Shown here: positions 13,142 to 56,924 of the stretch, one piece after another
How the letters are laid out: each line of letters begins with the position of its first letter
Numbering within the stretch: position 1 is the stretch's first letter
Notes under the pieces: model-generated
Told to the model about the DNA's origin: nothing
Databases searched by the model: none
The model's input: only the letters and a program-made list of their open reading frames with translations
From: an uncultured Planctomycetota bacterium
GTDB lineage: Bacteria > Planctomycetota > Planctomycetia > Isosphaerales > Isosphaeraceae
DNA length: 64,000 nt
NCBI GenBank assembly: GCA_963737655.1
Contig: CAVTTN010000002.1
Span: 1,280,001-1,344,000, forward strand
Direction of reading: 5' to 3'
Position numbers and translations under genes: made by a program

Positions 13142-15645
13142 TCAGGCATGCCCCTTCTCGACCAGGTCGATCAGCTCTCGGCCGGTCATCCGGTGGGCGG
13201 CGTCGTGGGGGCACGCGTAGACGCAGCTCGGCTCCCCGCCGAGGTCGTGGCAGAGGTCGCAGGCCGTGGCCTTCTGCTGGACCACCGCCATCATCTTCCC
13301 CGGCCGGTTCGGGTCGGGGATGCGCTCGCCGGTGGGGAACGGGTGCATGTTGATGTTGCCATACGGGCAATTCTCGGCGCACTTGCCGCAGCCGATGCAC
13401 CAGTCCTCGATGATGATCTCCAGCGAGTCCCTCCGCCGGATCGACCCCACCGGGCAGCCGACCATGCAGTACGGGTCCAGGCACGACCGGCACGAGCTGG
13501 CCACGAGGAACTTGTCGAACCTCAGCCCCTCGCGGATCAATCGCGTGACGCCGTCGTGGGCGTCGGCGCAGGCCTTGGTGCACTCGTCGCACCTCGTGCA
13601 TTTCTGGAGGTCCAGGACGAGCAGGCTGTTGGCATTCATGAGCCCCTGGCTGAGGAACTCGCCCAGGGGGAGGCTGTCGGCGCGCTCTGGGCCCGGGCGT
13701 TCTCCTCCAGCCTCTTGATCGCCTCGCGGACCAGGGGCTCGCGGACCAGGGGGAAGCGGGCGAGGAGGTCGCGGAAGTCGGCCGCGGTGATCTGGACGAG
13801 GTCCACGTGGTCCAGGGCCGAGCACGTCGCCGTCCTCAGGCCGGGAGGGGCGAGCGCGCGGACCTCGGCAACGTCGCTCATCAGCGCGATCTCGCCGAAG
13901 TAGCCGCCGGGCCCGACGTAGGTGAGGACGTGGTCTCCGCCGGGCCTCTTCTGCGAGACCTTCACGAACCCGGTGCGGACGAGGTAGAACCCGTCCTCCG
14001 AGCGATCCCCCTGGCGGAAGATGATCTCGCCCGGGTCGCGCCTGGCGAGCTTGACCGTCTTCCTCAGGTCGTCCACGAACCGGCCGAACTCCGCCTCGTC
14101 GTCGCGGATCGTCGAGAAGATGCCGACGCTCCTCAGGTGGCTGGAGATCGCCCGCTCCCGGTACTTCTCCTCCAGCTTCGCCCGGAACGCCCGGCTCCTC
14201 TGCATGATGTACAGGACGTTCCTCAGGAGCTCCAGGACGACGGTTTCCTCGGCCGCGCGGACGGTCGCCGAGCGGGGGTAGGAGTTCATGCAGGTCATCT
14301 CGCCGAAGATGTCGCCGGGCCCGAGGGTCGCGGCCGGCCTGGCGTAGGCCAGCGCCACCGGGGCGTCGATCGCGATGAACCCGCGGTCCCCCTCCCCCTC
14401 GCGCGTCTCCTCGTTGCGAGAGACCAGGTCCACCGTCAGCTTCTTCATCAGGCCGAACAGCCCGCGACCCTTCTTGCCCGCCCGGTTGCGGGCGTGACTC
14501 ATCGAGGCATTCAGATAGATATCCACCGATCCCGACTCGATCAGGAACGCCGACGAGCCGAACTCGCCTTCGCGGCAGATGATCTCGCCCTTCTTGAAGG
14601 TCCGGCGGACGATCGAGCTCTCGTTCCACCTCAGGAACGCCGGGGAGGAGCCGCGGAACGCCCGGCGGATGTCGTCGATCGGGTGGCGGATCAGCTCTTC
14701 GGCGCGGATCTTCTGAGGGGGCGGCGAGATGTCCTCCCACGGCTTGGCGACGACCGTGACCTTGTTCGTCAGGGCGCCCGTGGGGCAGGAGATCATGCAT
14801 TCGCCGCACGCCACGCACGACGAGTTGCCCATCGGGTCATCGAGATCGAAGGCGATCTTCGCCTGATAGCCCTTCTTCGCCCGGCCGATGACCTGGTTGT
14901 CGCGGATGTCGTTGCAGCCCCGGACGCAGCGATCGCAGAGGATGCAGGCGTCGTGATCGACGGCGATCACCAGCGAGGAATCGTCCTTGGGCCGGGGGGC
15001 CCGGCGGCTGAACCGGGGCGTCCCGACCTGGAATTTCGCCGCGAGCTCCTCCAGCTCGCAATCGCCGGTCTGCTTCTGCTTGGCGCAGGGGGTGGGGTGG
15101 TCGGCCATCAGCAATTCGGTGACGGTGTTGACGGCCTGGCGGACGGTCTCGGAGGTGGCCATCGTGGCCACTTCCATCGTGTCCTCGACCCGGTGCTGGC
15201 AGGCCGGCAGGAGCTTCCTCTCGGTCTGCATCTTGCCGCGCTTGACCTTCGAGATCTCGACCACGCAGACGCGGCAGACGGCCACCGGGTCCATGTGCTC
15301 GCGGTGGCAGAGGATCGGGATCGGGTTGACCGGGCTGCTGGAGGCGCGGAAGGTGGTCCCGGCGGCGAAGAGGAGGGCGGCGGCGTCGTAGATCGTCGTC
15401 GGCCGGGGGATCACCTTCCCCTCGGCGTCCTTGAGGAACGTCCCCTGGGCGTCGGTGGCGGGGACGGCCTTCTTCACGGTGATCGTCCGGCCGTCGATCT
15501 TGATCGTGACGTCGCGGTCGAGGTCCTCGGCGGTGACCTTGTCCATCCGCAGGAGGCGGCCGTCGAGGTCCCGGGAGAAGAGCCCTTCCTCCTCCTCGCG
15601 ACGGGCCACCGAGGCCGGCAGGGTGCTCATCGTCCCAACGCTCAT
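13142..15645 (-). CDS. NuoG/HoxU-like Fe-S N-terminus + two cNMP-binding domains + 4x[4Fe-4S] ferredoxin domain, with an apparent 1-nt deletion at ~13688
   Basis: ORF 13636..15645 has PILCH..CRVC..LPAC, CILCDRCVRGC, CVACGECMISCP, FGEM..YPRSATV and FGEI..LRTAT. It continues in the frame of 13142..14818 with CTRCDECTKAC, CRSCLDPYCMVGC, CIGCGKCAENC and CDLC..PSCVYAC. ATGA overlap with the upstream gene. Confidence 0.85.
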
Positions 15646-17432
15646 CGCTTCACCTCCAGGGTGCGGAGCGGGTCATCCCCGCCGACGGCCGGGCTCGGGG
15701 CGGGTCGGAACGCGGTGCGGACGTAGCCGGCCATGTCGTCTCGGAAGTTGCGGATCACCGAGCCCAGAGGATTCGCCGCGACCATCCCCAGGCCGCAGAT
15801 CGACGCCATCTCCAGGGCCTTGCGGAGGTCCGCGACCATGTCCTCCACCGGCTCCAGGCCCACCCCGTCGTACCGGCCCCCGAGGAGGTCCGTGCCGATC
15901 TCCACGAGCTTCTGCGAGCCGATCCGGCACGGGACGCACTTGCCGCACGACTCGTTGCGGAAGAACTCGGTGCAGTTCAACGCCTGGTCGGCCATGTCGG
16001 CCGAGTCTCCGTAGACGACCAATCCGCCGCCGAGCATCAGGCCGAAGTCGCGGAACGCCTGGAGGTCCAGGGGCAGGTCGAGGATGTTCAGGAAGGGCTT
16101 GTCGCCGGTCTTGCCCTGGGCCGACCTGGGGAGGTCGGCCAGGGGGATTCGCGTCGGGAGGAAGCCTCCCGAGGGGCCCGACGTCGCCACGGCCTTGAGC
16201 CTCTGGCCGGACCTCATCCCCCCGGCGTATTTGCCGATGAGCTGGCCGAGGGTCGTCCCGTTGGCGACCTCGTACACGCCCGGCCTCGCCACGTCGCCGG
16301 AGATCGAGAAGAACCGGGCCCCCTTGCAGCCGCCCGTGCCCAGGTCGCGATACCAGGCCCCTCCGTGGTGGTAGATCGCGGGGACCCAGGCGAACGTCTC
16401 GACGTTGGAAAGGAGCGTGGGCTTGTCGTACAGGCCGTTGGTCTCCAGCAGGGGCGGCTTGTTCCGGGGCTCGGCGCGCTTGTCCTCCATCGCCTCGATC
16501 AGGGCGCTCTGCTCCCCGCAGATGTAGCCTCCGGGGGAGACGAAGACCTCGATCGGGAACGATCGGCCCGTGCCGAGCAGGTCCTCGCCGCAGACGCCCA
16601 TCCGCTCGGCCCGGCCGATCGCGGCGTTCACGGCCTCGATCTGGGGCTCGTATTCGTGGCGGATGTAGACATAACCGCGCTCGGCCCCGGTGAGCAGCCC
16701 GGCGAGGATCACGCCTTCGAGGACGAGGTGGGGCGTCCTCAGCAATAATTCGCGGTCCTTGAAGGTGCCGGGCTCGCTCTCGTCGCCGTTGACGACGACG
16801 TACTTGCGGTCCCCTCGGGCCTGGCGGACGTCGTGCCACTTCTGGTGGGCCGGGACGCCCGCGCCGCCCATCCCTCGGAGGTCGGAGGCCTTGAGCTGCT
16901 CGACGAGGTTGTCGGCGTCCTTGGTCTCGACGAATTTGCGGGCGGCGGCGTATTCCTCCCGGCCTTCATACGGGTCGATCCGCCATCCGGTGCGGACCGG
17001 CTCGGCGAAGGTGGGGTCGATCCGGGAGAATGGGTCGGAGCGGCCGGTTATCGCGTCCCGGAGCAGGGCCCGGCACTCGGCCAGGGTCTTGGACCGATAG
17101 ACATGATGGCCCACCATCACCGCCGGAGCGGCGTCGCACTGGCCCAGGCACGACACCCCCTTGATCTCGACCGATTCCCCCCCGCCGAGCTCGGCGGCCA
17201 TCTCCTTCAAGGACCGGAGGTAGTCCGGGGCCCCTCGGAGGTGGCAGGCCATGTCCCGGCACACCAGGAACTCGACGTCCGGGGGCGGCTCCATCCGGTA
17301 GTGAGGGAAGCAGCTCGCCACCTCATGGAGCCGATGCAACGGCACGCTCAGCCGCTCCGAGAGCGCCTTGAGCTCCGAGGCGGGCAGGTAGCCGTTCTTC
17401 TTCTGGATCGCGTGGAGTTCTTGTTGGATCAT
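15642..17432 (-). CDS. Fused NuoE/NuoF-like (HoxF-like) FMN/NAD(P)H diaphorase subunit
   Basis: VCRDMACH..SCLGQC [2Fe-2S], LRGMGGAG, NGDESEPGTFKDR, YICGEQSAL and ESCGKCVPCR..SICGLG. Start placed at ATG 17432 because the longer ORF start lies inside a repeat. Confidence 0.9.
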   Translation of the reverse strand: MIQQELHAIQKKNGYLPASELKALSERLSVPLHRLHEVASCFPHYRMEPPPDVEFLVCRDMACHLRGAPDYLRSLKEMAAELGGGESVEIKGVSCLGQCDAAPAVMVGHHVYRSKTLAECRALLRDAITGRSDPFSRIDPTFAEPVRTGWRIDPYEGREEYAAARKFVETKDADNLVEQLKASDLRGMGGAGVPAHQKWHDVRQARGDRKYVVVNGDESEPGTFKDRELLLRTPHLVLEGVILAGLLTGAERGYVYIRHEYEPQIEAVNAAIGRAERMGVCGEDLLGTGRSFPIEVFVSPGGYICGEQSALIEAMEDKRAEPRNKPPLLETNGLYDKPTLLSNVETFAWVPAIYHHGGAWYRDLGTGGCKGARFFSISGDVARPGVYEVANGTTLGQLIGKYAGGMRSGQRLKAVATSGPSGGFLPTRIPLADLPRSAQGKTGDKPFLNILDLPLDLQAFRDFGLMLGGGLVVYGDSADMADQALNCTEFFRNESCGKCVPCRIGSQKLVEIGTDLLGGRYDGVGLEPVEDMVADLRKALEMASICGLGMVAANPLGSVIRNFRDDMAGYVRTAFRPAPSPAVGGDDPLRTLEVKR

Positions 17433-17436
17433 CTTT

Positions 17437-17526
17437 GTAGGGTGCATGAAATGCACCATCTGGAATTGGATTCCCCGGGCCGCCGTCTCGGAGGGAATCG
17501 GGATGGGCGCATTTCATGCACGTTAC
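17437..17526. repeat. GTAG-type REP-like inverted doublet, copy 1
   Basis: gtagggtgcatgaaatgcacc at 17437-17457 and a degenerate inverted copy at 17506-17526. Confidence 0.75.
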
Positions 17527-19106
17527 GGGGCACCCTTGAGGAACCTCGGGATGTCCAGCGCATCGACGTCCCTGGCCATCGACGGGCCGGGCTTGCGGTC
17601 GCCTCCGTGGTAGCGGTGGCATTCGGTGCAGGCGTGGCCGGCCCCTCCGACGGGCTGGCCCGAGGCGTCTCGGCCCGCCGGGGCGTGGCACGAGGCGCAC
17701 ACGTCCATCCTCGGCAGGAGGACGTCCGCGTTGGTCGTCGATCTCTCGAAGGCGTCCTCGTGGCACGACCGGCAGGAGACCGCCCGGTGCGCCGAGTGGT
17801 CGAAGTTCGCGTGCTCGAACCAGATCGTCGGCACGTAAGTCGGCTCGATCTGGACTCCGTCGAGAGACTGCGACAGGTCGGGCGAGGACTTGCGGCCGGC
17901 GGGGGTGTCGTAGCCGTGGCATTCGGTGCAGGTGTTGTGACCCGGTCCGAACAGGAGCTTCTCGGCCACGGCCACCCTCGCCGCGATCTCCTTCCTGGCC
18001 GAGACCTCGACGGCCGAGGACTTGCCCGGGAAGCCCCGGCGGCCGTCGTCGATCTTCCTGGCCAGGGCCGGGTCGCCCTCCAGGGTCAGGCCCAGCGAGA
18101 GGTTCGTCAGCGCCTCATGCAGGGCCGACGGTTGGAGGCGGTGAGGGACCGTCACGACCTTCGTGCCCTCGCCTTGGGGCATCGGCACGTTCAGCGCGTG
18201 GCAGGCCGCGCAATCGGCCTGATACGTGATCGGCTTGATATAGGCGCCGGTGCCGGCCAGCGGTTGATCGGCCAAAGCGAGCACGCCCGATCGGGACGAC
18301 GCCGAAGGCAGGGCGCCGTTGTCCAGCCGGTGGCACGAGGCGCATTCCAGTTGAACGGCGTCCTCGGGCTTCTTGCCCGGGGCGTACCGTTCCCTCGCCG
18401 TCGCCGACGTCAATTGCCCGGCCCGGAAGATCGGCGAGCCGCCCTGGACGGTGGTGAGGCCCGGGGCCATGTGCAAGGCGTGGTTGAACTTGAGCGTCCC
18501 GGGGTCGACCGCCGACTCCTTCCCCTGCCGGAACAGGGCGAAGGCCGGGTGATCGCCGGGGAACGAGGTCACCTTCGCCGCGAACGCGCTCTTTCCGGCC
18601 TTGGTGTGCGAGTCCAGCGCCTTGTGGCAGGAGGTGCAGTCCGAATCCTCCAGCTTCACCAGGGACGCCTCGCGCCCCCGGTGGTCGCGGTGGCAGCCGG
18701 CGCACGAGACGTCGCTCGGGTCGTTCGCCTGCTGGGCCTGGTGATGGATCTCGACCTGATGGCAGTCGAGGCACTTGAGGTCCGCGCCCTTCGTCGAGCC
18801 GCCGACGGCCTTCGTCCAGGAATCGTCGCTGATCGGATGGAAATCGACGTGGCATGCCTCGCACCGGGCGTCCCACGAGGCGTGGACGGCCGCCACCGGG
18901 CCGTGGGAGTAGCGCATCCGGGCCGAGTCGCTCTCGGCCAGGAGCCCGCGGCCGCCGGGCCTGAGCCCGCTGGCCCACCAGCCCAGGGCCGCGATCAGGG
19001 CGAGGAACGTCAGCGAGAGCTTCGCCCTCATCAGCCGGTCGGGCGTCTTGAAATAGTCCAGCGGGATTCGCGAGGCCCGCTGCTTGCCGGTCTGACGGTT
19101 CGCCAT
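17523..19106 (-). CDS. Membrane-anchored decaheme cytochrome c
   Basis: One N-terminal TM helix and 10 CxxCH motifs (CEACH, CLDCH, CAGCH, CTSCH, CASCH, CAACH, CTECH, CRSCH, CASCH, CTECH). Confidence 0.9.
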   Translation of the reverse strand: MANRQTGKQRASRIPLDYFKTPDRLMRAKLSLTFLALIAALGWWASGLRPGGRGLLAESDSARMRYSHGPVAAVHASWDARCEACHVDFHPISDDSWTKAVGGSTKGADLKCLDCHQVEIHHQAQQANDPSDVSCAGCHRDHRGREASLVKLEDSDCTSCHKALDSHTKAGKSAFAAKVTSFPGDHPAFALFRQGKESAVDPGTLKFNHALHMAPGLTTVQGGSPIFRAGQLTSATARERYAPGKKPEDAVQLECASCHRLDNGALPSASSRSGVLALADQPLAGTGAYIKPITYQADCAACHALNVPMPQGEGTKVVTVPHRLQPSALHEALTNLSLGLTLEGDPALARKIDDGRRGFPGKSSAVEVSARKEIAARVAVAEKLLFGPGHNTCTECHGYDTPAGRKSSPDLSQSLDGVQIEPTYVPTIWFEHANFDHSAHRAVSCRSCHEDAFERSTTNADVLLPRMDVCASCHAPAGRDASGQPVGGAGHACTECHRYHGGDRKPGPSMARDVDALDIPRFLKGAP

Positions 19107-19134
19107 GAGCGGCCCTCGGACTGTCTCGATCCGG

Positions 19135-20112
19135 TCAGAGATAACGCAAGGCGACGACGATATGGACGAACATCAACGCGATCAGGGCCACCGACAGCGG
19201 CAGGTGGACGAGCAGCCAGTTGTGGAGCCAGAAGTGGAGCCGTTCCTGGCGGTCGAGCTGGCGGCGCTGCTCACACAGGCCCTCCATCGCGTCGATGGCC
19301 GGGTGGGCCCGGGGGTCCACCTTCGTCTTCAGGTCGGCGAACATGGCCGAGGCGCGGTCGGGGCGGCTCAGGGGCGAGCGCCCGAATCCTTCGTGATGCA
19401 GGAACGGCCCGGCCGTGGTCTCGAAGAACGATCGGAGGGCCTCGGAGTTGGCGATGGCCTCGCCGGCCGATCGCGTCTGGAGGACCTTGCCGCTGATCTT
19501 CCCCGCCGAGCGGACCGCGCCGACGACGAGATGGACCGTCCGGGGGTCGGCGTCGTCCTCGTCTTCCTCGGGGGTCGGCTTCCCGGGCACGGCCTCGGCC
19601 TTGCCGCAGGTGGCCTGGACCAGCCGGGTCGCTTCCTCGTGGTAGTGGCCGATGATCCGGGGGATCTGGGAGTGGATCGTCTCGGCCGGGATGTCCGCCA
19701 GCATGGTCTTCGGCAGGAGGTTCTGGAGCGCCAGGCCCCAGACCCCGCTGGCGATCACCACGAGGAACAATGCCATCAGGACCGTGCTGAGCGAGCCGCC
19801 CCACCGGAACCCGCTGTGGAGGACCAGGATCGGCAGGCTGAGCAGGCCGAGCCAGATGTGGGCCTTCATCCAGACCTTCACCCGCCCGAGCCGCCAGACC
19901 CTCAGCTTCTTCCTCGGCCAGAGGAGGAACTCGAACAGGCAGATCAGCCCGCCGATCACCCCGAAAGTGAACCCCGGCAGGCTCCCGCCGCCCAGGAAGC
20001 GAGACCGGGCGAGGCTCGCCACGGCGTACCAGAGCGTGGCGCCGAGGGTCGCCAGCGACGCGAATGCGAACCAGGCCCGATGGCCCTTCCAGTGCTCGGA
20101 ATCGATCAGCAT
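19135..20112 (-). CDS. Integral membrane protein, ferric-reductase-like putative di-heme b domain
   Basis: About 5 TM helices, with two His pairs each separated by 13 residues (AHIWLG..VLHSG and VHLPLS..FVHIV). Confidence 0.75.
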   Translation of the reverse strand: MLIDSEHWKGHRAWFAFASLATLGATLWYAVASLARSRFLGGGSLPGFTFGVIGGLICLFEFLLWPRKKLRVWRLGRVKVWMKAHIWLGLLSLPILVLHSGFRWGGSLSTVLMALFLVVIASGVWGLALQNLLPKTMLADIPAETIHSQIPRIIGHYHEEATRLVQATCGKAEAVPGKPTPEEDEDDADPRTVHLVVGAVRSAGKISGKVLQTRSAGEAIANSEALRSFFETTAGPFLHHEGFGRSPLSRPDRASAMFADLKTKVDPRAHPAIDAMEGLCEQRRQLDRQERLHFWLHNWLLVHLPLSVALIALMFVHIVVALRYL

Positions 20113-20321
20113 CGCCGGAAACGTCCCCCTCGGGGCGCCCTCGCCCCGTCATCGGGCCGTCGCGATCGGCAGGCCCCGCAGAACTCGCCCCCCGATCGTA
20201 GCGAAATTCCGGCGGAAGCCAACGGTTTACCCCCGGTTCCTTGATTTTCGGCCCGGAGGGGGGCATCTTCAGAGATATCGAACCGGCCGATGACGGCCGA
20301 GTCCCCGGGGAGGGTCCGGTC

Positions 20322-21749
20322 ATGAGGCGAGTCTCAACCGTCGGCGGCGCCCTGACCGGCGCCTCGGCCCTGGCCACGATCTGGCTGGTCTTCGGGCCGC
20401 GTCCCACCCCCGCGAGCCCTCCCCCGGTCGGACCGACGAACGCCCCGGTCGCCGCGGGCCCGAAATTCGTCCCCCGAGGGGCCGGCTCGTGCGCCGCCGC
20501 CGCCTGCCACGGCTCGGCCACGTCGCTACCGTCATTCTCGAACGTCTTCCGCAACGAGCACACTACCTGGATCACCCGAGACCCCCACTCGCGGGCCTAC
20601 GAAGTCCTCAGCGATGAGCGGTCGCTGTCGATCGCCCGGAACCTGGGCAACGGCCGACCGGGCGGCCGCGTGATTGCGCCGTCCGAAGACGCCCGCTGCC
20701 TGGCCTGCCACTCCACCCCTTCGGCGACGACCGCCGCCTTGGGCGACGCCGCGGACGTGATCCGTCGCGACGGCGTCGGGTGCGAGTCTTGCCACGGGCC
20801 CTCCAGCGGATGGCTCAGCGAGCACACCCGGGCCGATTTCGTGGGACTCTCCGGCGAGGTCAAGCACGACCAGTTCGGCCTGAACAACCTGAAAAACCCG
20901 ATCGTTCGCGCGAAGACCTGCACCGGCTGCCACGTCGGCGCCCCGGAGGGAGACGGCCTCCCCCTGCGAGACGTCAATCACGACCTGATCGCCGCCGGCC
21001 ACCCCCGGCTCGACTGGGAGTTCTCGGCCTACGTGGCGAACTACCCCAAGCACTGGACCACCGCGAACGACCCGCCGGACTGGGACGCCCGGCTCTGGAA
21101 GATCGGCCAGGTTGAGACCCTCCGCGCCGCGACCGACCTCCTCAACGCCCGGGCCGAGGCCGCCGAGGCCCACAAGGCCCCCTGGCCCGAATTCGCCGAA
21201 TATTCCTGCTACAGCTGCCACTTCGCCCTGAAGGACAAGCCGTTCAAGGTCGGCCTCGACCCGCAGACGCCCCCCGGGATGCCCGCCTGGGGCTCGTGGA
21301 CGACTCCTTTGATCCCGCCTCTCGCGAAGCTCTCCGCCGGACCCGCCCCATCGGCCGACGAGCGGCTGAATGACCTCCGAACCGTCATGAAGACCTTCGG
21401 CGCGGAGCCCAAGATCGCCGCCGAGAAGGCCCGATCGACCCGCGACGCCCTCTCGGCCTGGCTGGCGACCCTCCCGAACGCCCCGCTGACCGCCCCCGAG
21501 ATCAAGACGCTGATCGCCGCCCTCGACGCCAGGGACGCTGCCGGACGACTCGCGCTGGTCCACCGATGGGACTCGGCCGCGCAGGTCTATCTCGGCCTCG
21601 CCGCCCTGAATGTGTCGCTCCAGAAGCTCGACCCGAACGCCGTCGATCCCAAGCTCCGGGCCGAGCTGAAGGAACTCCTCGGAAAGCTCAGCTTCGCCAA
21701 GGGGTTCGACAGCCCCCGGGATTTCAACCCGTCGGCGCCGAACCGTTAG
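20322..21749 (+). CDS. Pentaheme cytochrome c (c554-like N-terminal domain)
   Basis: N-terminal hydrophobic segment, CAAAACH, CLACH, GVGCESCHGP, CTGCH, CYSCH and HDLIAAGHP. Confidence 0.85.
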   Translation: MRRVSTVGGALTGASALATIWLVFGPRPTPASPPPVGPTNAPVAAGPKFVPRGAGSCAAAACHGSATSLPSFSNVFRNEHTTWITRDPHSRAYEVLSDERSLSIARNLGNGRPGGRVIAPSEDARCLACHSTPSATTAALGDAADVIRRDGVGCESCHGPSSGWLSEHTRADFVGLSGEVKHDQFGLNNLKNPIVRAKTCTGCHVGAPEGDGLPLRDVNHDLIAAGHPRLDWEFSAYVANYPKHWTTANDPPDWDARLWKIGQVETLRAATDLLNARAEAAEAHKAPWPEFAEYSCYSCHFALKDKPFKVGLDPQTPPGMPAWGSWTTPLIPPLAKLSAGPAPSADERLNDLRTVMKTFGAEPKIAAEKARSTRDALSAWLATLPNAPLTAPEIKTLIAALDARDAAGRLALVHRWDSAAQVYLGLAALNVSLQKLDPNAVDPKLRAELKELLGKLSFAKGFDSPRDFNPSAPNR

Positions 21750-22749: not shown

Positions 22750-24483
22750 ATGGGCATCCCGACGATGATCGAAGCCTTGGGCGAGGACGCCTCGAAGGCC
22801 GTCCAGGCCGCCCTGGACGACTGGCAGGCCGGCAGCAAGGTCAAGAGGCTCTGGGACGGTGACGCTTCGCTCTGGTCGGGCGCCGACGAAGGCCAGTGGC
22901 TCGGCTGGCTCCACGTGATCGACGAGCCCGGCCGCACCGAGATGGTCAAGAACCTGCAGGCGATCGCCCAGGACGTCCATTCGCTCGGCGTGACCGACGC
23001 CCTGGTCATGGGGATGGGCGGGTCGAGCCTCTGCCCCGAAGTGTTGAAGATGACGTTCGGCCACATTCAGGGCTGGCCCAATCTCCACGTCCTGGATTCG
23101 ACCGTGCCGGCCCAGGTCGCCTCGTTCCGCGACTCGCTCGACCTGGCGAAGACGGTTTGCATCGTCTCGTCGAAGTCCGGCAGCACCACCGAGCCGAACG
23201 TCTTCCGCCAGTACTTCCAGGAGCAGGTCGGCGCCGCGATCGGAGCGGAGAAGGCCGGTTCCAGGTTCCTCGCCGTGACCGACCCGGGCACGAAGATGCA
23301 GGCCGTGGCCGAGCAGAACGAGTTCCGCACGATCGCCTTCGGCGTGCCGTCGATCGGCGGGCGGTTCTCGGCCCTGTCGAATTTCGGGATGGTCCCGGCG
23401 GCCGTGATGGGCCTCGACGTGGCGGATTTCCTCCGCCGGGCCGGCGAGATGGTCGTCGCCTGCGGCCCGAACACCTCGGCCGAGTCGAACCCGGGCGTCC
23501 GCCTCGGCGCGATCCTCGGCGTGATGGCCCGCGACTTCCACAAGGACAAGGTCACCCTGATCACCTCGCCTCCGATCGGAGACCTCGGCGCCTGGCTCGA
23601 ACAACTGCTCGCCGAATCGACCGGAAAGCAGGGCAAGGGCGTGGTCCCCGTCGACGGCGAGGCGATCGGGCCGCCTTCGGCGTACGGGAACGACCGCCTG
23701 TTCGTGTACTTGCGGCTCGAAGCCGCGCCCGATGCCTTGCAAGATGAGGCGGTCTCCGCCCTGGAGAATGCCGGCCATCCGGTGGTTCGCGTGCCGATCG
23801 AGGACCCGATGGACCTGGGCGCCGAGTTCTTCCGCTGGGAGTTCGCCACGGCGGTGGCCGGTTCGATCCTGGGGATCAACGCGTTCAATCAGCCGGACGT
23901 CGAGGCGAGCAAGATCAAGACCCGCGAGCTCTCGGCCGAGTACGCGAAGACGGGCAAGGTTCCCGACGAGGTCCCGGTCTCCGAGGGCGGCGGATTCAAG
24001 CTGTTCACCGACGAGAAGAACGCCGACGCCCTCGCCCGGGCCGCCGCCACGCCCGAGCCGGCCGATTACCTCCGGGCCCACCTCGCCCGGTTCGAGGTCG
24101 GCGATTATTTCGCCCTCACGGCCTATGTCCAGATGGACGCCGAGAACAAGGCGATCCTCGAAGAGATCCGCCACCTCGTGAGGGACGGGCGGCGAGTCGC
24201 GACGACGCTCGGGTTCGGGCCGAGGTTCCTGCACTCGACGGGCCAGCTCCACAAGGGGGGGCCGAACTCGGGCGTGTTCCTGCAAATCACCTCGGACGAC
24301 GCCTTCGACCTGGCGATCCCGGGCGAGGTCTACAGCTTCGGCCTGTTGAAGAGGTTCCAGGCGCAGGGGGATTTCGCCGTCCTGGTCGAGAGAAACCGCC
24401 GGGCCCTGCGCGTCCACCTCGGTCCCGACGTGCCGGAAGGGCTGCGGAAGCTCAAGGAGACCATCCGCGAAGCTCTCGGATGA
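22750..24483 (+). CDS. pgi: Glucose-6-phosphate isomerase (type matching the PGI half of Tal-Pgi fusions)
   Basis: WLGWL, GMGGSSL, SSKSGSTTE, IGGRFSALS, EQLLAESTGK, NQPDVEASK and GPRFLHSTGQLHKGG motifs. Confidence 0.9.
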   Translation: MGIPTMIEALGEDASKAVQAALDDWQAGSKVKRLWDGDASLWSGADEGQWLGWLHVIDEPGRTEMVKNLQAIAQDVHSLGVTDALVMGMGGSSLCPEVLKMTFGHIQGWPNLHVLDSTVPAQVASFRDSLDLAKTVCIVSSKSGSTTEPNVFRQYFQEQVGAAIGAEKAGSRFLAVTDPGTKMQAVAEQNEFRTIAFGVPSIGGRFSALSNFGMVPAAVMGLDVADFLRRAGEMVVACGPNTSAESNPGVRLGAILGVMARDFHKDKVTLITSPPIGDLGAWLEQLLAESTGKQGKGVVPVDGEAIGPPSAYGNDRLFVYLRLEAAPDALQDEAVSALENAGHPVVRVPIEDPMDLGAEFFRWEFATAVAGSILGINAFNQPDVEASKIKTRELSAEYAKTGKVPDEVPVSEGGGFKLFTDEKNADALARAAATPEPADYLRAHLARFEVGDYFALTAYVQMDAENKAILEEIRHLVRDGRRVATTLGFGPRFLHSTGQLHKGGPNSGVFLQITSDDAFDLAIPGEVYSFGLLKRFQAQGDFAVLVERNRRALRVHLGPDVPEGLRKLKETIREALG

Positions 24484-25019
24484 ACCGCCAAGACGCCAAG
24501 ATCGCCAAGGGAAGAGGAGAGGAGAACGCGTTTACTTCTGGGGGTTTCGATGAGCCTTTCCGAAAATCCTGCTCTCCGGACCGAGCCGGATGAAGAACTG
24601 GACGCCCTGGCCCATGCGGTCATCGGCGCGGCCATCGAAGTCCATCGGCATCTCGGTCCGGGCTACCTGGAGGGCGTTTACGAGGACGCCCTGGCTGTCG
24701 AATTCGGCCTGCGTGGCATCGTCTTCGAGCGGCAGAAACCGATCGCCGTCGAGTTCAAGGGGGTCCCCGTCGGTGAGGGTCGGCTCGATTTCCTCGTCGA
24801 AGAGCGTCTGATCGCCGAATTGAAGGCCGTCGAGGAACTGGCGCCGATCCACCGCGCCCAGGTCCTCTCCTATCTCCGAACGACCGGGCCGAGCCTCGGC
24901 CTGCTGATCAACTTCAACGTCACAACCCTGAGGAACGGGATCAAGCGAGTGATCCTCTCCTGATCCTCCTCTCCTCTTCTCTCGTCTTTCCTTGGCGCCC
25001 TTGGCGTCTTGGCGGTTCA
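24481..25019. mobile_element. Putative inverted-repeat-bounded element carrying a GxxExxY gene
   Basis: Perfect 20-bp IR TGAACCGCCAAGACGCCAAG at 24481-24500 and 25000-25019. Each end has three CGCCAAG units and a purine (left) or pyrimidine (right) tract. Confidence 0.65.
24550..24963 (+). CDS. GxxExxY protein (PD-(D/E)xK nuclease-like fold)
   Basis: VIGAAIEVHRHLGPGYLEGVY, RLDFLVE..IAELKAV, AQVLSYL and GLLINFN. 137 aa. Confidence 0.95.
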   Translation: MSLSENPALRTEPDEELDALAHAVIGAAIEVHRHLGPGYLEGVYEDALAVEFGLRGIVFERQKPIAVEFKGVPVGEGRLDFLVEERLIAELKAVEELAPIHRAQVLSYLRTTGPSLGLLINFNVTTLRNGIKRVILS

Positions 25020-25039
25020 CCTTTCCCGGACGATCCACG

Positions 25040-27120
<2,081 letters not shown>

Positions 27121-27124
<4 letters not shown>

Positions 27125-27528
27125 ACCCGCTCGGGACGATCCGCTCGAGGCCGGCCGGTCCCCGCCGATCGCGTCGCAAGACGGTCACGATCGGCGGGAT
27201 GCTCCTGATCGTCGCCCTGTCGGCGGCGGGGCTGAGGCTCCTCCGGGCGATCCTCCCTCTGACCGCATCCCAGGCCGCCCGGGTCGCCCGCGAGGAGGTC
27301 TCCCGGCGCGACCCGGCCTTCGCCGCCGACGCCCAGGTCGTCCAGGTCGCCCCCCGAGAGGAGACCGCCGGCAGGCCGTGGAACTGGGCCTACCGCTGGG
27401 AGGTCGTCCTGAGGGGCCGCGACGCCCCGACCGGGTACTTCGTCGAGATCGACGGCCGCGAAAACGTGAAGGTCGGCCTCGCCTACGACATCCGCCCCGG
27501 CCACTGGTCCTACGACGAGCCGCGATGA
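27121..27528 (+). CDS. Small hypothetical protein with one TM helix
   Basis: ATGA overlap with the tkt stop. A basic stretch is followed by TIGGMLLIVALSAAGL. This is the 3' end of ORF 26200..27528. Confidence 0.6.
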
Positions 27529-27559
27529 ACCCGAACCCGATCGAGAAACGGCACGACGC

Positions 27560-28231
27560 ATGAGCGCATCTCACCCCGCCCTCCAGTTCGTCGAGCCCGG
27601 CCAGGTGCTCGGGCTCGGCACCGGCCGATCGGCCGCCGCGTTCATCCGGGCCCTGGGCGATCGGGTCAAGGCGGGCCTGGACGTCCGCGGCGTCCCCACG
27701 TCGAAGGCCTCGGCCGAGCTCGCCCGGTCGCTGGGAATCCCCCTGGTTTCGCTCGACGACATCGACTCGATCGACGTCGCCCTCGACGGCGCCGACGAGG
27801 TCGACCCGGCCCTGAACCTCATCAAGGGCCGGGGCGGCGCGCTGGTCCGCGAGAAGATCGTCGCCGCGGCGGCCCGGCAATTCCTCGTGCTGGTGGGCGA
27901 GGAGAAGCTCGTCCCGGTCCTCGGGGCGAAGGGGGCCCTGCCGGTGGAGGTCGTCCCGTTCGCCCTCGGGTTCTGCCGGAGGAAGCTCGACGCCCTGGGC
28001 TGCCGGCCCTCGCCGAGGACCACGCCCGAGGGCGCCCCGTACATCTCCGACAACGGCAACCCGATCCTGGATTGCCACATCCACGAGCTGGCCGACCCCG
28101 CCGCCCTCGAACGGGCGATCCTCGCCCTGCCCGGGGTCGTGGACACCGGATTGTTCCTCGGGATGGCCTCGGCGGTGATCGTCGGCGATGATGAGACATC
28201 GGCGCGGGTCTTGCGGCGCCCGGGGACCTGA
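27560..28231 (+). CDS. rpiA: Ribose-5-phosphate isomerase A
   Basis: GLGTGRS, DGADEVD, IKGRGGALVREKIVA, LPVEV and GVVDTGLF motifs. Confidence 0.96.
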   Translation: MSASHPALQFVEPGQVLGLGTGRSAAAFIRALGDRVKAGLDVRGVPTSKASAELARSLGIPLVSLDDIDSIDVALDGADEVDPALNLIKGRGGALVREKIVAAAARQFLVLVGEEKLVPVLGAKGALPVEVVPFALGFCRRKLDALGCRPSPRTTPEGAPYISDNGNPILDCHIHELADPAALERAILALPGVVDTGLFLGMASAVIVGDDETSARVLRRPGT

Positions 28232-28255
28232 TCTCCCGTCCAGAAGGAGGATGTC

Positions 28256-28906
28256 ATGAGCCTCGGCACGGCCGTCGAAACCCGATCACCGATCGAATCC
28301 CAGGTCGTCCCCCCTCCGCCCGAATCCGGCGATGCGCCGTATGAGCTGACGGCCGACGAATTCCTCGCTCTCGTCGAAACCGGGGCATTCCGCGAGGGTT
28401 CCCGCATCTACCTCCGGGACGGCCGGATCTACGAGAAAATGGCGAAAACCATCCCCCATTCCCTGCTCGGCTCGATGATCGCCACCGCCCTGATCCGACG
28501 CCTCCCGCCGGGTTGGTTCGTGATCCCCGAGGGACAGTTCAAGGTCGATGACAGGAATTCCCGCCTGCCCGACATCGCCGTGGTCCGGGGGGCCCATCCC
28601 TTCGCCCTCCTCGAACCCGGCGCCTTTCCCGAGGCCAAAGACCTCGGCCTGATCGTCGAGATCTCCGTGACGAGCCTCGCGAAAAACCCGGGCCGGAACC
28701 TCGATCGCTATGCCCGGTCCGGTGTGCCGAGCTACTGGGTCATGGACTTCCCCGGCCGCCGCATCCTCGCCCATTCCGGGCCCCGGGCCGTCGAGGACCG
28801 GGGCGAGTATGAGCACGTCGCGGTCGTCGGGCCCGGCCGGATGATCCCCCTCGTCCTGGACGGCGTCGAGTCCGTCCGGTTCGCCTATGAAGAACTGATG
28901 CCCTGA
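28256..28906 (+). CDS. Uma2 family (DUF820) putative endonuclease
   Basis: [23 protein letters not shown] and [11 protein letters not shown] motifs. AAGGAGG RBS upstream. Confidence 0.85.
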
Positions 28907-28935
28907 TCGGGATCAAAATCTCAGGAGATGCTGTC

Positions 28936-29961
28936 GTGCAACTCGGAATGGTCGGGCTGGGGCGGATGGGCGCGAACATGGCCCGCCGCCTGATGAAGGG
29001 CGGACACCAGTGCGTCGCCTTCGACATGAACCCGCAGAGCGTCCAGGCCCTGGAGGCCCACGGGGCCGTCGGCGCCTCGTCGATGGAGGACTTCGTCCGG
29101 AAGCTCACCAAGCCCCGGGCCGTCTGGCTGATGATCCCGGCCGCGTTCGTCGACTCGACCCTGGAGAAGTTCGCCGCCATCCTCGAGCCCGACGACATCT
29201 TGATCGACGGCGGCAACTCCTACTACATCGACGACATCGCGCGGGCCAGGACCCTGAAGACCAAGGGCCTGCACTACGTCGATGTCGGCACGAGCGGAGG
29301 CGTGTGGGGCCTGGAGCGCGGCTACTGCCAGATGATCGGCGGCGAGGACGCGGTGGTGAAGCACCTCGACCCGATCTTCAAGACCCTCGCCCCCGGGATC
29401 GACGCCAACCCCGCCCGCACCCCCGGCCGCGAAGGCCAGCCCGCGTCCACCGCCGAGCACGGCTATCTCCACTGCGGGCCCAACGGCGCGGGGCACTTCG
29501 TCAAGATGGTGCACAACGGCATCGAATACGGCATCATGGCCGCGTACGCCGAGGGCCTGAACATCCTCAAGCAGGCCGACATCGGCACCCGCGAGCACGC
29601 CAAGGACGCCGAGACCACCCCCCTGCGGAACCCGGAGCACTATCAATACAAGTTCAACCTCGCCGACGTGGCCGAGAACTGGAGGCGAGGCAGCGTGATC
29701 GGTTCCTGGCTCCTGGACCTCACCGCCAGCGCCCTGGCCAAGGACGAGGGGCTCGTCGAGTTCTCCGGCCGCGTGAGCGACTCGGGCGAGGGCCGCTGGA
29801 CCATCCAGGCCGCCATCGACGAGGCCGTGCCGGCCCACGTCCTCACCACCGCGCTGTATGAACGATTCAGCTCCCGAGGCGAGTCGAATTATGCCGACAA
29901 GCTGATGTCGGCCATGCGCAAGGAATTCGGCGGGCACGTCGAGCGCGCTGCGGGCGGTTGA
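28936..29961 (+). CDS. gnd: 6-phosphogluconate dehydrogenase, decarboxylating (short type)
   Basis: [42 protein letters not shown] and MRKEFGGH motifs. AGGAG upstream. Confidence 0.95.
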
Positions 29962-29966
29962 GAGAT

Positions 29967-30150
29967 TGAACCGCCAAGACGCCAAGTTCGCCAAGGGCAG
30001 AGGAGAGGAGTAGAGCGGGAAGAAATGAGAAACACAGATTAGATCGGATGAGAATTTAACTCGATTTGCAAATCCGCTGATTTGCGCGCTGAATTCTTAC
30101 TCTTCTCCTCCTCTCCTCTCCCCTTGGCGGACCTGGCGCCCCGGCGGTGA
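29967..30150. mobile_element. Gene-less (MITE-like) copy of the GxxExxY-type element
   Basis: The left end TGAACCGCCAAGACGCCAAG (29967-29986) is identical to 24481-24500. The core is AT-rich and the inverted right end is degenerate (ctcctctccccttggcggacctggcgccccggcggtga). Confidence 0.7.
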
Positions 30151-36305: not shown

Positions 36306-37835
36306 ATGCCCGAGCGATCGTCCGCCGGTCGGATCGTCCCGATCGCGTCGTTAGCGGCGGCATTGTCGGCCATCGGCCTCGTCGCCATCGGCCGGGGGGA
36401 GCCGCCGAGGCCGCCCCAGGACCCGCCCGCGCCGAAGGCCGGCGCCCCCGCCCCGAAGCCGAACAAGGATTGGTACGCCGTCAAGCAGTGCGGGGCCTGC
36501 CACCGGCCGGGCAAGGGGGAGGAGGTCACCAGCTTCGTCCGTCTCGACGAGATCAACATCTGGCGAGACCTGGACAAGCACAGCAAGGCGTTCACCAACC
36601 TCGACCCGAAGACCAACGAGAAATCCCGGAGGATGGCCGACCTCCTCGGCTGGGACCTCCAGAAAGACGGCCGCTGCCTGAGCTGCCACGCCCCCGCCTT
36701 CGACGCCCCCAAGGCGAAGGAGAAACCCGAGCTGGTGACCGAGGGCGTGAGCTGCTCCGGCTGCCACGGGCCGGATGATCGCTGGATTCGCGAGCACGGG
36801 TTCGGCCAGGAGGACTGGATCAAGAGGACGGCCGCCGACAAGTTCCGGAACTGGGGGATGAACGACCTCCGCGACCCGGCGGTGAGGTCCGCCATGTGCG
36901 CCTCGTGCCACGTCGGCGACGCCTCGCAGGGCCGGGTGGTCACCCACGAGATCTACGCCGCCGGCCACCCGCCCCTGCCCGGCCTGGAGGTCTCGTTCTT
37001 CAGCGAGGCCGAGCCGCCCCACTGGTGGCCCATGAAGGACGTCCCGTACCTCAAGAACAAGCCCGAGGCGCTGAAGAATCAGTACGGGATCGATCAGGCC
37101 GCCACCCAGCACGCGAAGCTCGTGGCCGTGGGCGGGGTGGTGGACCTCCGCGAGTCGATGACGCTGTTCGCCGACACCGCCAAGCCGGGCGCCATGCCCG
37201 ATTTCGCCCGGTTCGATTGCGCCTCATGCCATCACGAGCTCAAGGAGTCGCGCGACTCGTGGAGGCAGGCGTTCGGGTTCCCGGCCGAGCCCGGGCGGCC
37301 TCCGTCGGCGCACTGGCCGGCGGCCCTGGCGAGGATCGGCATCGCCGCCGGAGACCCGGCGCAGGCCGCCTCCCGGACCAGGGACCTGGACGACGCCCTG
37401 GCCGCCTTCCGCCAGGCCGTCGGCGACCGCCCGTTCGGCGACGACTCGAAATCGGTCGCCGCCGCCCGGAAGCTCGCCTCCTGGGCCGACGGGCTGGCCA
37501 AGGCCCTGGACTCGCAGAAGTTCGACCGCGCCTCGGCCCTGAGGATGCTCCGCAAGATCGCCGAGACCGAGCCCCGCGATTATGCCTCGGCCCGCCAGCT
37601 CGTCTGGGGCTTCCGCTCGATCCTGAAGGAGATGGACGACAAATCCCCGGACGCCCAGGAGGTCGCCCACCTGATCGACGGCCTGATGCTCCAGCTCGGG
37701 ATCAACCTGATCCCCCGGGCCGACGGAGGCATCGAACGGGCCCTCGGAGCCCGCCTCGAAGCCGACGACAGGTACGACCCAGCCAGCTATCACCAGACGA
37801 TGGACGACATCGCGAAGCGCTTGAACAACCTGTAG
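36306..37835 (+). CDS. Pentaheme cytochrome c, paralog of 20322..21749
   Basis: Signal/TM segment, CGACH, CLSCH, GVSCSGCHGP, CASCH, CASCH and HEIYAAGHP. Confidence 0.87.
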   Translation: MPERSSAGRIVPIASLAAALSAIGLVAIGRGEPPRPPQDPPAPKAGAPAPKPNKDWYAVKQCGACHRPGKGEEVTSFVRLDEINIWRDLDKHSKAFTNLDPKTNEKSRRMADLLGWDLQKDGRCLSCHAPAFDAPKAKEKPELVTEGVSCSGCHGPDDRWIREHGFGQEDWIKRTAADKFRNWGMNDLRDPAVRSAMCASCHVGDASQGRVVTHEIYAAGHPPLPGLEVSFFSEAEPPHWWPMKDVPYLKNKPEALKNQYGIDQAATQHAKLVAVGGVVDLRESMTLFADTAKPGAMPDFARFDCASCHHELKESRDSWRQAFGFPAEPGRPPSAHWPAALARIGIAAGDPAQAASRTRDLDDALAAFRQAVGDRPFGDDSKSVAAARKLASWADGLAKALDSQKFDRASALRMLRKIAETEPRDYASARQLVWGFRSILKEMDDKSPDAQEVAHLIDGLMLQLGINLIPRADGGIERALGARLEADDRYDPASYHQTMDDIAKRLNNL

Positions 37836-37955
37836 GGTGCATGAAATGCACCAACCCGCGGCGGGCCACGCCCGCCCTCCGCATCCCTCCTCCCTTCGGT
37901 GGGGGACGTCATGCGGAGGGCGGGCGTGGGCTTGGTGCATTTCATGCACCCTACA
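37831..37955. repeat. GTAG-type REP-like inverted doublet, copy 2
   Basis: 24-bp perfect IR at 37831-37854 and 37932-37955, plus an inner 19-bp perfect IR at 37866-37884 and 37911-37929. Confidence 0.85.
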
Positions 37956-56816: not shown

Positions 56817-56924
56817 CGGGTGGCATGCCCACGTCTTCGTGGGCATGTCTTCATCCGGTCTGGCTTGTTCATCCGGCATGGGTGAACCGAAGACATGCCC
56901 ACGTCTTCGTGGGCATGCCACCCG
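56817..56924. repeat. Inverted doublet of palindromic units (REP-like, second family)
   Basis: cgggtggcatgcccacgtcttcgtgggcatgtcttc at 56817-56852 and gaagacatgcccacgtcttcgtgggcatgccacccg at 56889-56924. Confidence 0.8.

Follow-up and report, generated by a model that had tools for sequence, protein, structure and literature searches.

The window analysed here is a 64,000-nucleotide stretch from an uncultured Planctomycetota bacterium of the family Isosphaeraceae (contig CAVTTN010000002.1, positions 1,280,001 to 1,344,000). Within a pentose-phosphate operon it carries a small gene of the GxxExxY family, set between pgi and the transketolase gene and enclosed by two inverted arrays of the heptamer CGCCAAG. 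Comparisons across genomes identify this unit as one member of a widespread gene-plus-repeat system. The features of the unit, and of a second, gene-less unit downstream, are as follows.

22750..24483, + strand: phosphoglucose isomerase gene (pgi), host gene upstream; its stop codon forms the first three bases of the left arm
24481..24525, + strand: left arm, with the pgi stop TGA, an AC leader, three CGCCAAG heptamers (1- and 2-nt spacers) and a purine tract
24550..24963, + strand: GxxExxY / PDDEXK_3 gene, 137 residues, with conserved E41, D80, E90, K92, Q104 and Y108
24601..24615, + strand: D18, A21 and H22 are encoded here, all within the N-terminal helix predicted for residues 15-35; covariation is seen between residue 18 and heptamer base 4 and between residue 21 and base 5
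24975..25019, - strand: right arm, mirroring the left arm, with three CGCCAAG heptamers
25040..27124, + strand: transketolase gene (tkt), host gene downstream
29967..30029, + strand: left arm of the gene-less element after gnd
30030..30088, no strand assigned: AT-rich centre, which by eye resembles a decayed CGCAGAT-type hairpin and failed the strict pattern
30089..30150, - strand: right arm of the same gene-less element, decayed and lying ahead of zwf

The window unit is bounded by a perfect 20-bp inverted repeat (24481-24500 against 25000-25019) that extends to 45 nt at 89%. Its left arm holds heptamers at 24486-92, 24494-500 and 24503-09, which are mirrored in the right arm at 25008-14, 25000-06 and 24991-97. 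The TGA of pgi (24481-83) provides the first bases of the left arm, and 24550-24963 is the sole gene between the arms. An earlier, sequence-only reading of the window had described the heptamer-built perfect repeats, the single enclosed GxxExxY gene and the placement of units at or just after stop codons, and the coordinates, heptamer positions and profile matches agree with it on each point. A promoter and terminator scan gave nothing above shuffled sequences, and an Rfam search returned four chance-level matches, none reaching threshold.

The encoded protein matches the profiles TIGR04256 (GxxExxY, E 2e-40) and PF13366 (E 4e-40), with scores exceeding the curated cut-offs (137.7 bits against 35, 137.3 against 22). 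These matches uphold its earlier assignment to a PD-(D/E)xK-like family of unknown function, as does the available passage of PMC3424549, which gives the function of the family as unknown, reports multiple transfers and is silent on repeats. The E-D-ExK core is intact (E41, D80, E90 and K92) and the catalytic residues are 98-99% conserved. Codon differences number 262 synonymous against 87 non-synonymous (12 of 15 close pairs), indicating that the gene is under purifying selection. In fold it is nearest to lambda exonuclease, RecE and Cas4, with restriction-enzyme domains also among the neighbours, none of them strong (best Z 8.0, none with E <0.001). A sequence search for solved relatives found none, and PADLOC returned only a weak Cas4b stretch (E 0.0015).

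The second unit, 29967-30150, lies between gnd and zwf and begins 5 bp past the gnd stop. Its first 20 bp are identical to those of the window unit (44 nt at 95%) and its right end is decayed, as previously noted. The further proposal that it is an empty copy of the first unit found no support: it is one of 44 gene-less paired elements, and its interior aligns (~71%) with other gene-less elements and not with the GxxExxY gene.

Heptamer repeats and their GxxExxY genes

The genome-wide search for the arm sequence that the sequence-only reading had suggested gave 97 matches to the CGCCAAG pattern in the host genome, against 2 for a reversed-pattern control. There are 45 inverted CGCCAAG pairs (family A), spanning 116-533 bp, among which the window unit is the longest and the sole gene carrier. 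The genome holds three GxxExxY genes, each inside a different arm type: CGCCAAG in the window, CACGAAG at C2:7340390 and a CGCAGAT-like type at C2:379452. Every one of these arm types also has dispersed gene-less pairs (31 for CACGAAG). Seven Y1 transposase matches (L004-L010) were found, none of them within 58 kb of a CGCCAAG end, and the Y1 genes examined are flanked by other repetitive extragenic palindromic (REP)-like repeat types of their own. The heptamer family is not tied to these Y1 transposases, and RAYT-like systems coexist with the heptamer families in the host genome. Two REP doublets of other families lie in the window (37831-37955 and 56817-56924), and the REP type of the former also occupies sites where congeners carry heptamer elements.

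For comparison across genomes, 112 GxxExxY loci were chosen by likeness to the window protein, 108 of them with full flanks. Enclosing inverted repeats with a score of at least 30 were found at 86/108 of these loci against 4/407 shifted control positions, an enrichment that the sequence-only reading required. A held-out set added 83 loci; 65 had full flanks, and 49 of these reached the same threshold. The loci come from cyanobacteria, Chloroflexi, Bacteroidota, Verrucomicrobia, proteobacteria and one archaeon. Within the host family, 121 genomes were surveyed for a repeat excess, defined as a generic triple-heptamer pattern at least 15 above its control. Such an excess was present in 55/87 genomes with a GxxExxY gene and 1/34 without; among genomes at least 90% complete, the counts were 18/39 and 0/21.

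Repeat type follows gene type as well, as examined in 132 of 305 gene matches from 68 genomes. CGCCAAG is abundant in 6/6 genomes with a CGCCAAG-armed gene against 1/62 others, and CACRGAG in 22/25 genomes with such a gene against 5/43 others. No positive cross-association between gene type and non-matching repeat type was found in these 68 genomes. In two CGCCAAG-rich genomes, G032 and G040, the cognate gene at first seemed missing, but both turned out to carry an Ala21 gene and, upstream of it, a CGCCAAG array. The size of the CGCCAAG family is specific to the lineage, with 97 matches in the host and 6, 5 and 0 in congeners. On a FastTree phylogeny of 199 proteins, 140 of them typed and many forks unresolved, 21 changes suffice to explain arm type, against 60.2 under shuffling; the covariation of repeats with protein phylogeny that the sequence-only reading had proposed to look for was also found.

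Other layouts occur as well. In G014 (C1:2579645-2580003 and C2:36859-37914), single arms are set in head-to-tail tandem arrays with 68-bp and 173-bp periods. At four loci (L414, L421, L256 and L253), a complete gene-less hairpin lies upstream of the gene and the downstream arm is decayed or missing.

Protein residues and heptamer bases

Residue 21 of the protein has the highest mutual information with heptamer base 5. In the discovery set (115 typed), Thr21 occurs with G5 in 52/53 cases and Ala21 with A5 in 22/22, Ser being mixed; among the held-out loci (49 typed of 81), Thr21 goes with G5 in 24/25 and Ala/Val21 with A5 in 15/16. When residues 20-22 were left out of the tree, Thr21 came first among 370 residue splits, scoring 15.7:0 over 26 independent pairs. 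Asp18 tracks C4, first of 385 splits, with 14:0 in 16 pairs; in the downstream arm alone, this association stood at 17/49 against 1/77 in the discovery set and 13/21 against 1/37 in the held-out set. The top splits were residues 18, 21 and 22, one helix turn apart; they fall within the opening turns of the helix predicted at 15-35 (predicted local distance difference test score 92) and are spaced as on one helix face. Zinc fingers offer familiar examples of Asp-C, Asn-A and Ala-thymine contacts.

A single locus in Nostoc serves as a natural experiment. It is occupied by a GxxExxY gene in 30/30 genomes (the closest 30 of 127 matches), in four alleles: N18/T21 with CGCAGAG (n=11), E18/A21 with CGCAAAG (n=9), E18/A-V21 with CGCGAAG (n=5) and D18/A-V21 with CGCCAAG (n=5). 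Both arms fit this pattern in 26 genomes, one arm in 2 and none in 2. The 5' two-thirds of the gene is 71-80% identical between alleles and the flanks are 90-99% identical. Taken together, the alleles predict the genome-wide share of their own repeat type (0/10000 permutations did as well). Residues and both arms switch together here, in support of a recognition code.

Since the heptamer word changes in step with two protein residues, the enzyme likely reads its own repeats and likely sustains or spreads them, and recognition of the heptamers by the GxxExxY protein is very probable. The apparent recognition code, linking residue 18 to base 4 and residue 21 to base 5, is a new finding here.

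Proposed cutting and repair, and the alternatives

Several features of the gene-less elements bear on how they arise. Spacer bases are alike between the two arms of one element (0.72-0.86, against 0.30-0.50 between elements), and in 13/45 family-A elements the symmetry reaches at least 10 bp into the flanks (6% of controls). A truncated older end lies 20-45 bp outside 19/90 ends (1 and 6 in controls), and 11/43 CGCAGAT hairpins are nested within CGCCAAG elements. Shared spacer bases, flank symmetry, truncated older ends and nested hairpins would all fit repeated cut-and-repair at occupied sites. When the centres of family-B elements were searched elsewhere in the genome, 21/30 were unique, 4 had 2-6 matches and 5 were too short.

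Site occupancy differs among relatives. Among 30 loci, the pgi-tkt junction recurred in 3 other genomes; all three lack the cassette and have gaps of 36, 83 and 644 bp. The gnd-zwf junction was found in 21 others, with no CGCCAAG arms in the portion of sequence listed. Congener G081 has a CGCAGAT arm immediately before zwf, and the gnd-zwf junction of G053 (L168) carries a different mirrored heptamer run of GGCAGAG / CCTGTGT type. Of 38 congener element loci, 15 had a syntenic site in the host; a heptamer element was lacking at 12 of these, and a CGCCAAG end was present at 3. Five related cassettes (~85% identical) lie in unrelated flanks, their homology stopping ~10 bp outside the arms with no target duplication visible at the ends. 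G109 has three cassette copies, 88-92% identical. G040 (L418, L428-L435) has a GxxExxY cassette with a variant, CAGGAAA-like arm word and, dispersed, at least six copies that share one common internal deletion; these copies adjoin REP-like hairpins that could have moved them. From these comparisons we infer that the elements move; the presence/absence polymorphism sought by the sequence-only reading was found as sites filled or empty among congeners, and its stricter form, an exact empty allele, was not found.

The 644-bp pgi-tkt gap of G081 holds a DUF559 gene encoding a small nuclease fold (L121:1864-2500), which adjoins CCCCTCACCCTAACCCTCTCCCC hairpins, presumably those named boxC. This may be a parallel nuclease-repeat partnership. 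No DUF559 gene was found in the host genome.

In the proposed mechanism, the small GxxExxY protein of PD-(D/E)XK fold, likely a sequence-specific nuclease, would bind heptamer arrays directly on DNA through its predicted N-terminal helix, with about one protein per heptamer. It may cut at or near the arrays, near the arm end, and the host's repair of such cuts would then construct and refresh the repeats and let them spread. If that repair runs through gene conversion or fold-back copying, it might equalise the two arms of an element, set new ends upon old ones and exchange the allele of a cassette where a site is already filled. For the window gene, with D18, A21 and H22, the predicted targets would be the CGCCAAG elements, 29967-30150 among them. 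We consider it probable that the protein is a repeat-specific PD-(D/E)XK nuclease whose host-repaired cuts build and renew the repeats. A broader reading is put forward tentatively, as a possibility: that this is a third enzyme class, after HUH and GIY-YIG, to keep its own short-repeat population, in which one helix of a ~130-residue nuclease reads the tandem heptamers by a simple code, pairing residue 18 with base 4 and residues 21/22 with base 5, and palindromic elements are replicated without a transposase by cut-and-repair.

A number of results weigh against this account. Gene and repeat do not always go together: 22/108 loci are under the repeat threshold, 20/87 gene-bearing genomes lack a repeat excess, G083 (78% complete) has repeats and no GxxExxY gene was found in it, and in G081 the main repeat type mismatches its one detected gene. 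Kin are not independent in the cross-genome counts, whose p-values are therefore overstated. Tested singly, the Nostoc alleles gave p 0.001, 0.05, 0.14 and 0.14, two of the four not significant, and the residue-21 test on starred branches only (4-6 pairs) gave p 0.06 and 0.25, not significant. Ser21 pairs with either base (21 A, 18 G), Asp18 often occurs with A4, and no covarying residue stood out for base 2, base 7 or spacer length. An exact empty allele was found neither at the Nostoc locus, filled in all 30 genomes, nor from a near-identical strain elsewhere. Near-identical centres are absent among family-A elements (best centre alignment score 0.43), and this genome accordingly shows no recent jumps of whole elements.

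A protein that reads the heptamers and serves the host or its own persistence would explain the recognition evidence equally well; it might, for example, control recombination or incoming DNA, as SsnA of Neisseria does, or regulate itself, repeat spread being a by-product or of other cause. Purifying selection, fixation at one Nostoc site with several specificity alleles, and rarity on plasmids (8/72,556 records) and viral contigs (3 loci) speak for such a role, and SsnA of Neisseria modulates transformation according to the available part of PMC11893778. A family size that is lineage-specific and follows the cognate gene argues the other way, as do the filled and empty sites among congeners and a cassette found in unrelated contexts across phyla; autoregulation, moreover, needs neither a downstream arm nor stacked ends. 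We regard this explanation as rather unlikely. A purely genealogical explanation, in which arms and gene are merely co-inherited and the residue-base covariation reflects shared descent and not contact, draws on the few well-supported independent switches and the clustering of arm type on the tree. It is very unlikely, given that residues 18, 21 and 22, one helix turn apart, came out on top of hundreds of splits, that the pattern recurs in held-out data and at one orthologous locus, and that dispersed copies far from the gene match too.

The arms could also have been selected as an RNA stem, looping the passenger gene out of the operon transcript as the sequence-only reading had entertained. 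Such a stem would resemble an intervening sequence, and either a double-strand RNase or the GxxExxY protein would process it. Both whole window units do fold well as RNA (z -4.9 and -7.0), as any inverted repeat would, and a crude gene call puts the elements between genes, most of them no more than 55 bp from a stop codon. Their placement is less suited to such a role, with 15 of 43 placed elements between convergent genes and 7 between divergent genes. Mismatches between arms show no G·U bias on the sense strand (G·U against A·C 119:122 at 148 gene loci; 46:55 in 48 gene-less elements oriented by transcription). At the 148 loci, arm-to-arm match is 0.94-0.95 at bases 2 and 5 (only ~0.5 between loci), against 0.76 at base 4 and 0.57-0.66 in the spacers, and heptamer likeness is 0.58 within an arm and 0.59-0.66 across arms. 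For three single arms, folding was no stronger than in shuffled sequences (z 1.5, -0.3 and 0.5), against z -2.0 and -5.8 for two REP controls. An RNA stem is therefore improbable, and we infer that the arms act as DNA sites. [quoted passage not shown] Terminal inverted repeats with tandem subterminal units do resemble transposon ends, and the repeated deleted cassette of G040 is a point in favour. No direct repeat of at least 8 bp was found in the 30-bp flanks of the 45 family-A elements (a 2-3 bp duplication would escape), consistent with the earlier remark that no target-site duplication is evident. Further, no paired element exceeds the 533-bp window unit, which encloses no transposase, the Y1 matches are distant and have REP types of their own, and arm type tracks the GxxExxY protein.

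With the nuclease account, a large family of unknown function gains a specific, testable substrate and a residue-to-base rule open to mutagenesis. The system bears on how bacterial genomes come to acquire and retain short palindromic repeats, which have until now been linked to RAYT transposases and Ssn nucleases. If the cutting is true, there would be a natural series of very small nucleases with differing specificities, and if the third-class reading is true, thousands of natural variants would form a library of compact, re-targetable nucleases.

Elsewhere in the window, an open reading frame of 134 residues with no Pfam or NCBIfam match lies between tkt and rpiA (27123-27528). Two putative endonuclease genes of the Uma2 family (PF05685; 21973-22647 and 28256-28906) lie within or beside the same operon as the window unit. 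A multiheme cytochrome c gene cluster, with a cNMP/4Fe-4S protein and a NuoEF-like protein, occupies 13639-21749.

Comparison with known systems

Like pairs of insertion sequences and MITEs, the heptamer elements have terminal inverted repeats and occur in gene-bearing and gene-less forms. They differ in having no target duplication of at least 8 bp, no near-identical copies and no recognised transposase between the ends, and this analogy of the sequence-only reading was not supported. Some intervening sequences of rRNA also carry an open reading frame enclosed by long inverted repeats, as in the window unit. Unlike these, the heptamer units lie in mRNA spacers, give no sign of selection on RNA pairing and match no Rfam family at threshold.

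The gene-plus-heptamer system is real, widespread and apparently unpublished. No paper linking GxxExxY to repeats was found in a search that left most subscription journals and supplements outside, and PMC3733652 and PMC4679880, in their available parts, describe other repeats. The Ssn nucleases (Chenal et al. 2025, PMC11893778) are GIY-YIG enzymes that need a single-stranded DNA hairpin, and their authors, in the portion available, suspect a domesticated element. As described there, Ssn/NTS/SRM is like the present system in that the cognate repeat flanks a small gene for a single-domain nuclease, that repeat copies are numerous and dispersed, and that many nuclease-repeat pairs exist across phyla. 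Unlike Ssn, the GxxExxY fold is PD-(D/E)XK, with no GIY-YIG profile match and another family matched at E 1e-40, and each arm is a direct heptamer array without a hairpin of its own.

The likeness to RAYT/REPIN is of a similar kind. In the available part of Bertels and Rainey (bioRxiv 10.1101/2021.07.10.451892), REPINs are extragenic elements of ~100-200 bp with two conserved inverted ends, a variable spacer and a low-copy enzyme gene flanked by repeats; RAYTs are vertically inherited and REPINs undetected in archaea. Extragenic paired ends, a variable spacer, many copies and a link to an enzyme gene are found in the heptamer elements as well. The suggestion of a gene-bearing and gene-less pair like RAYT-REPIN is the one that was supported, given the enrichment at genes, the tracking of gene presence and type and the filled or empty sites. 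The two systems differ in that RAYT is an HUH Y1 transposase, as far as that source goes, and the window protein matches only PF13366 / TIGR04256. Each REP is described as a short palindrome, whereas single heptamer arms do not fold, and the GxxExxY tree has mixed-phylum clades and an armed archaeal copy (L093). Being neither GIY-YIG nor HUH and having no hairpin per arm, the system appears to work like Ssn/NTS and RAYT/REPIN and to be a member of neither.

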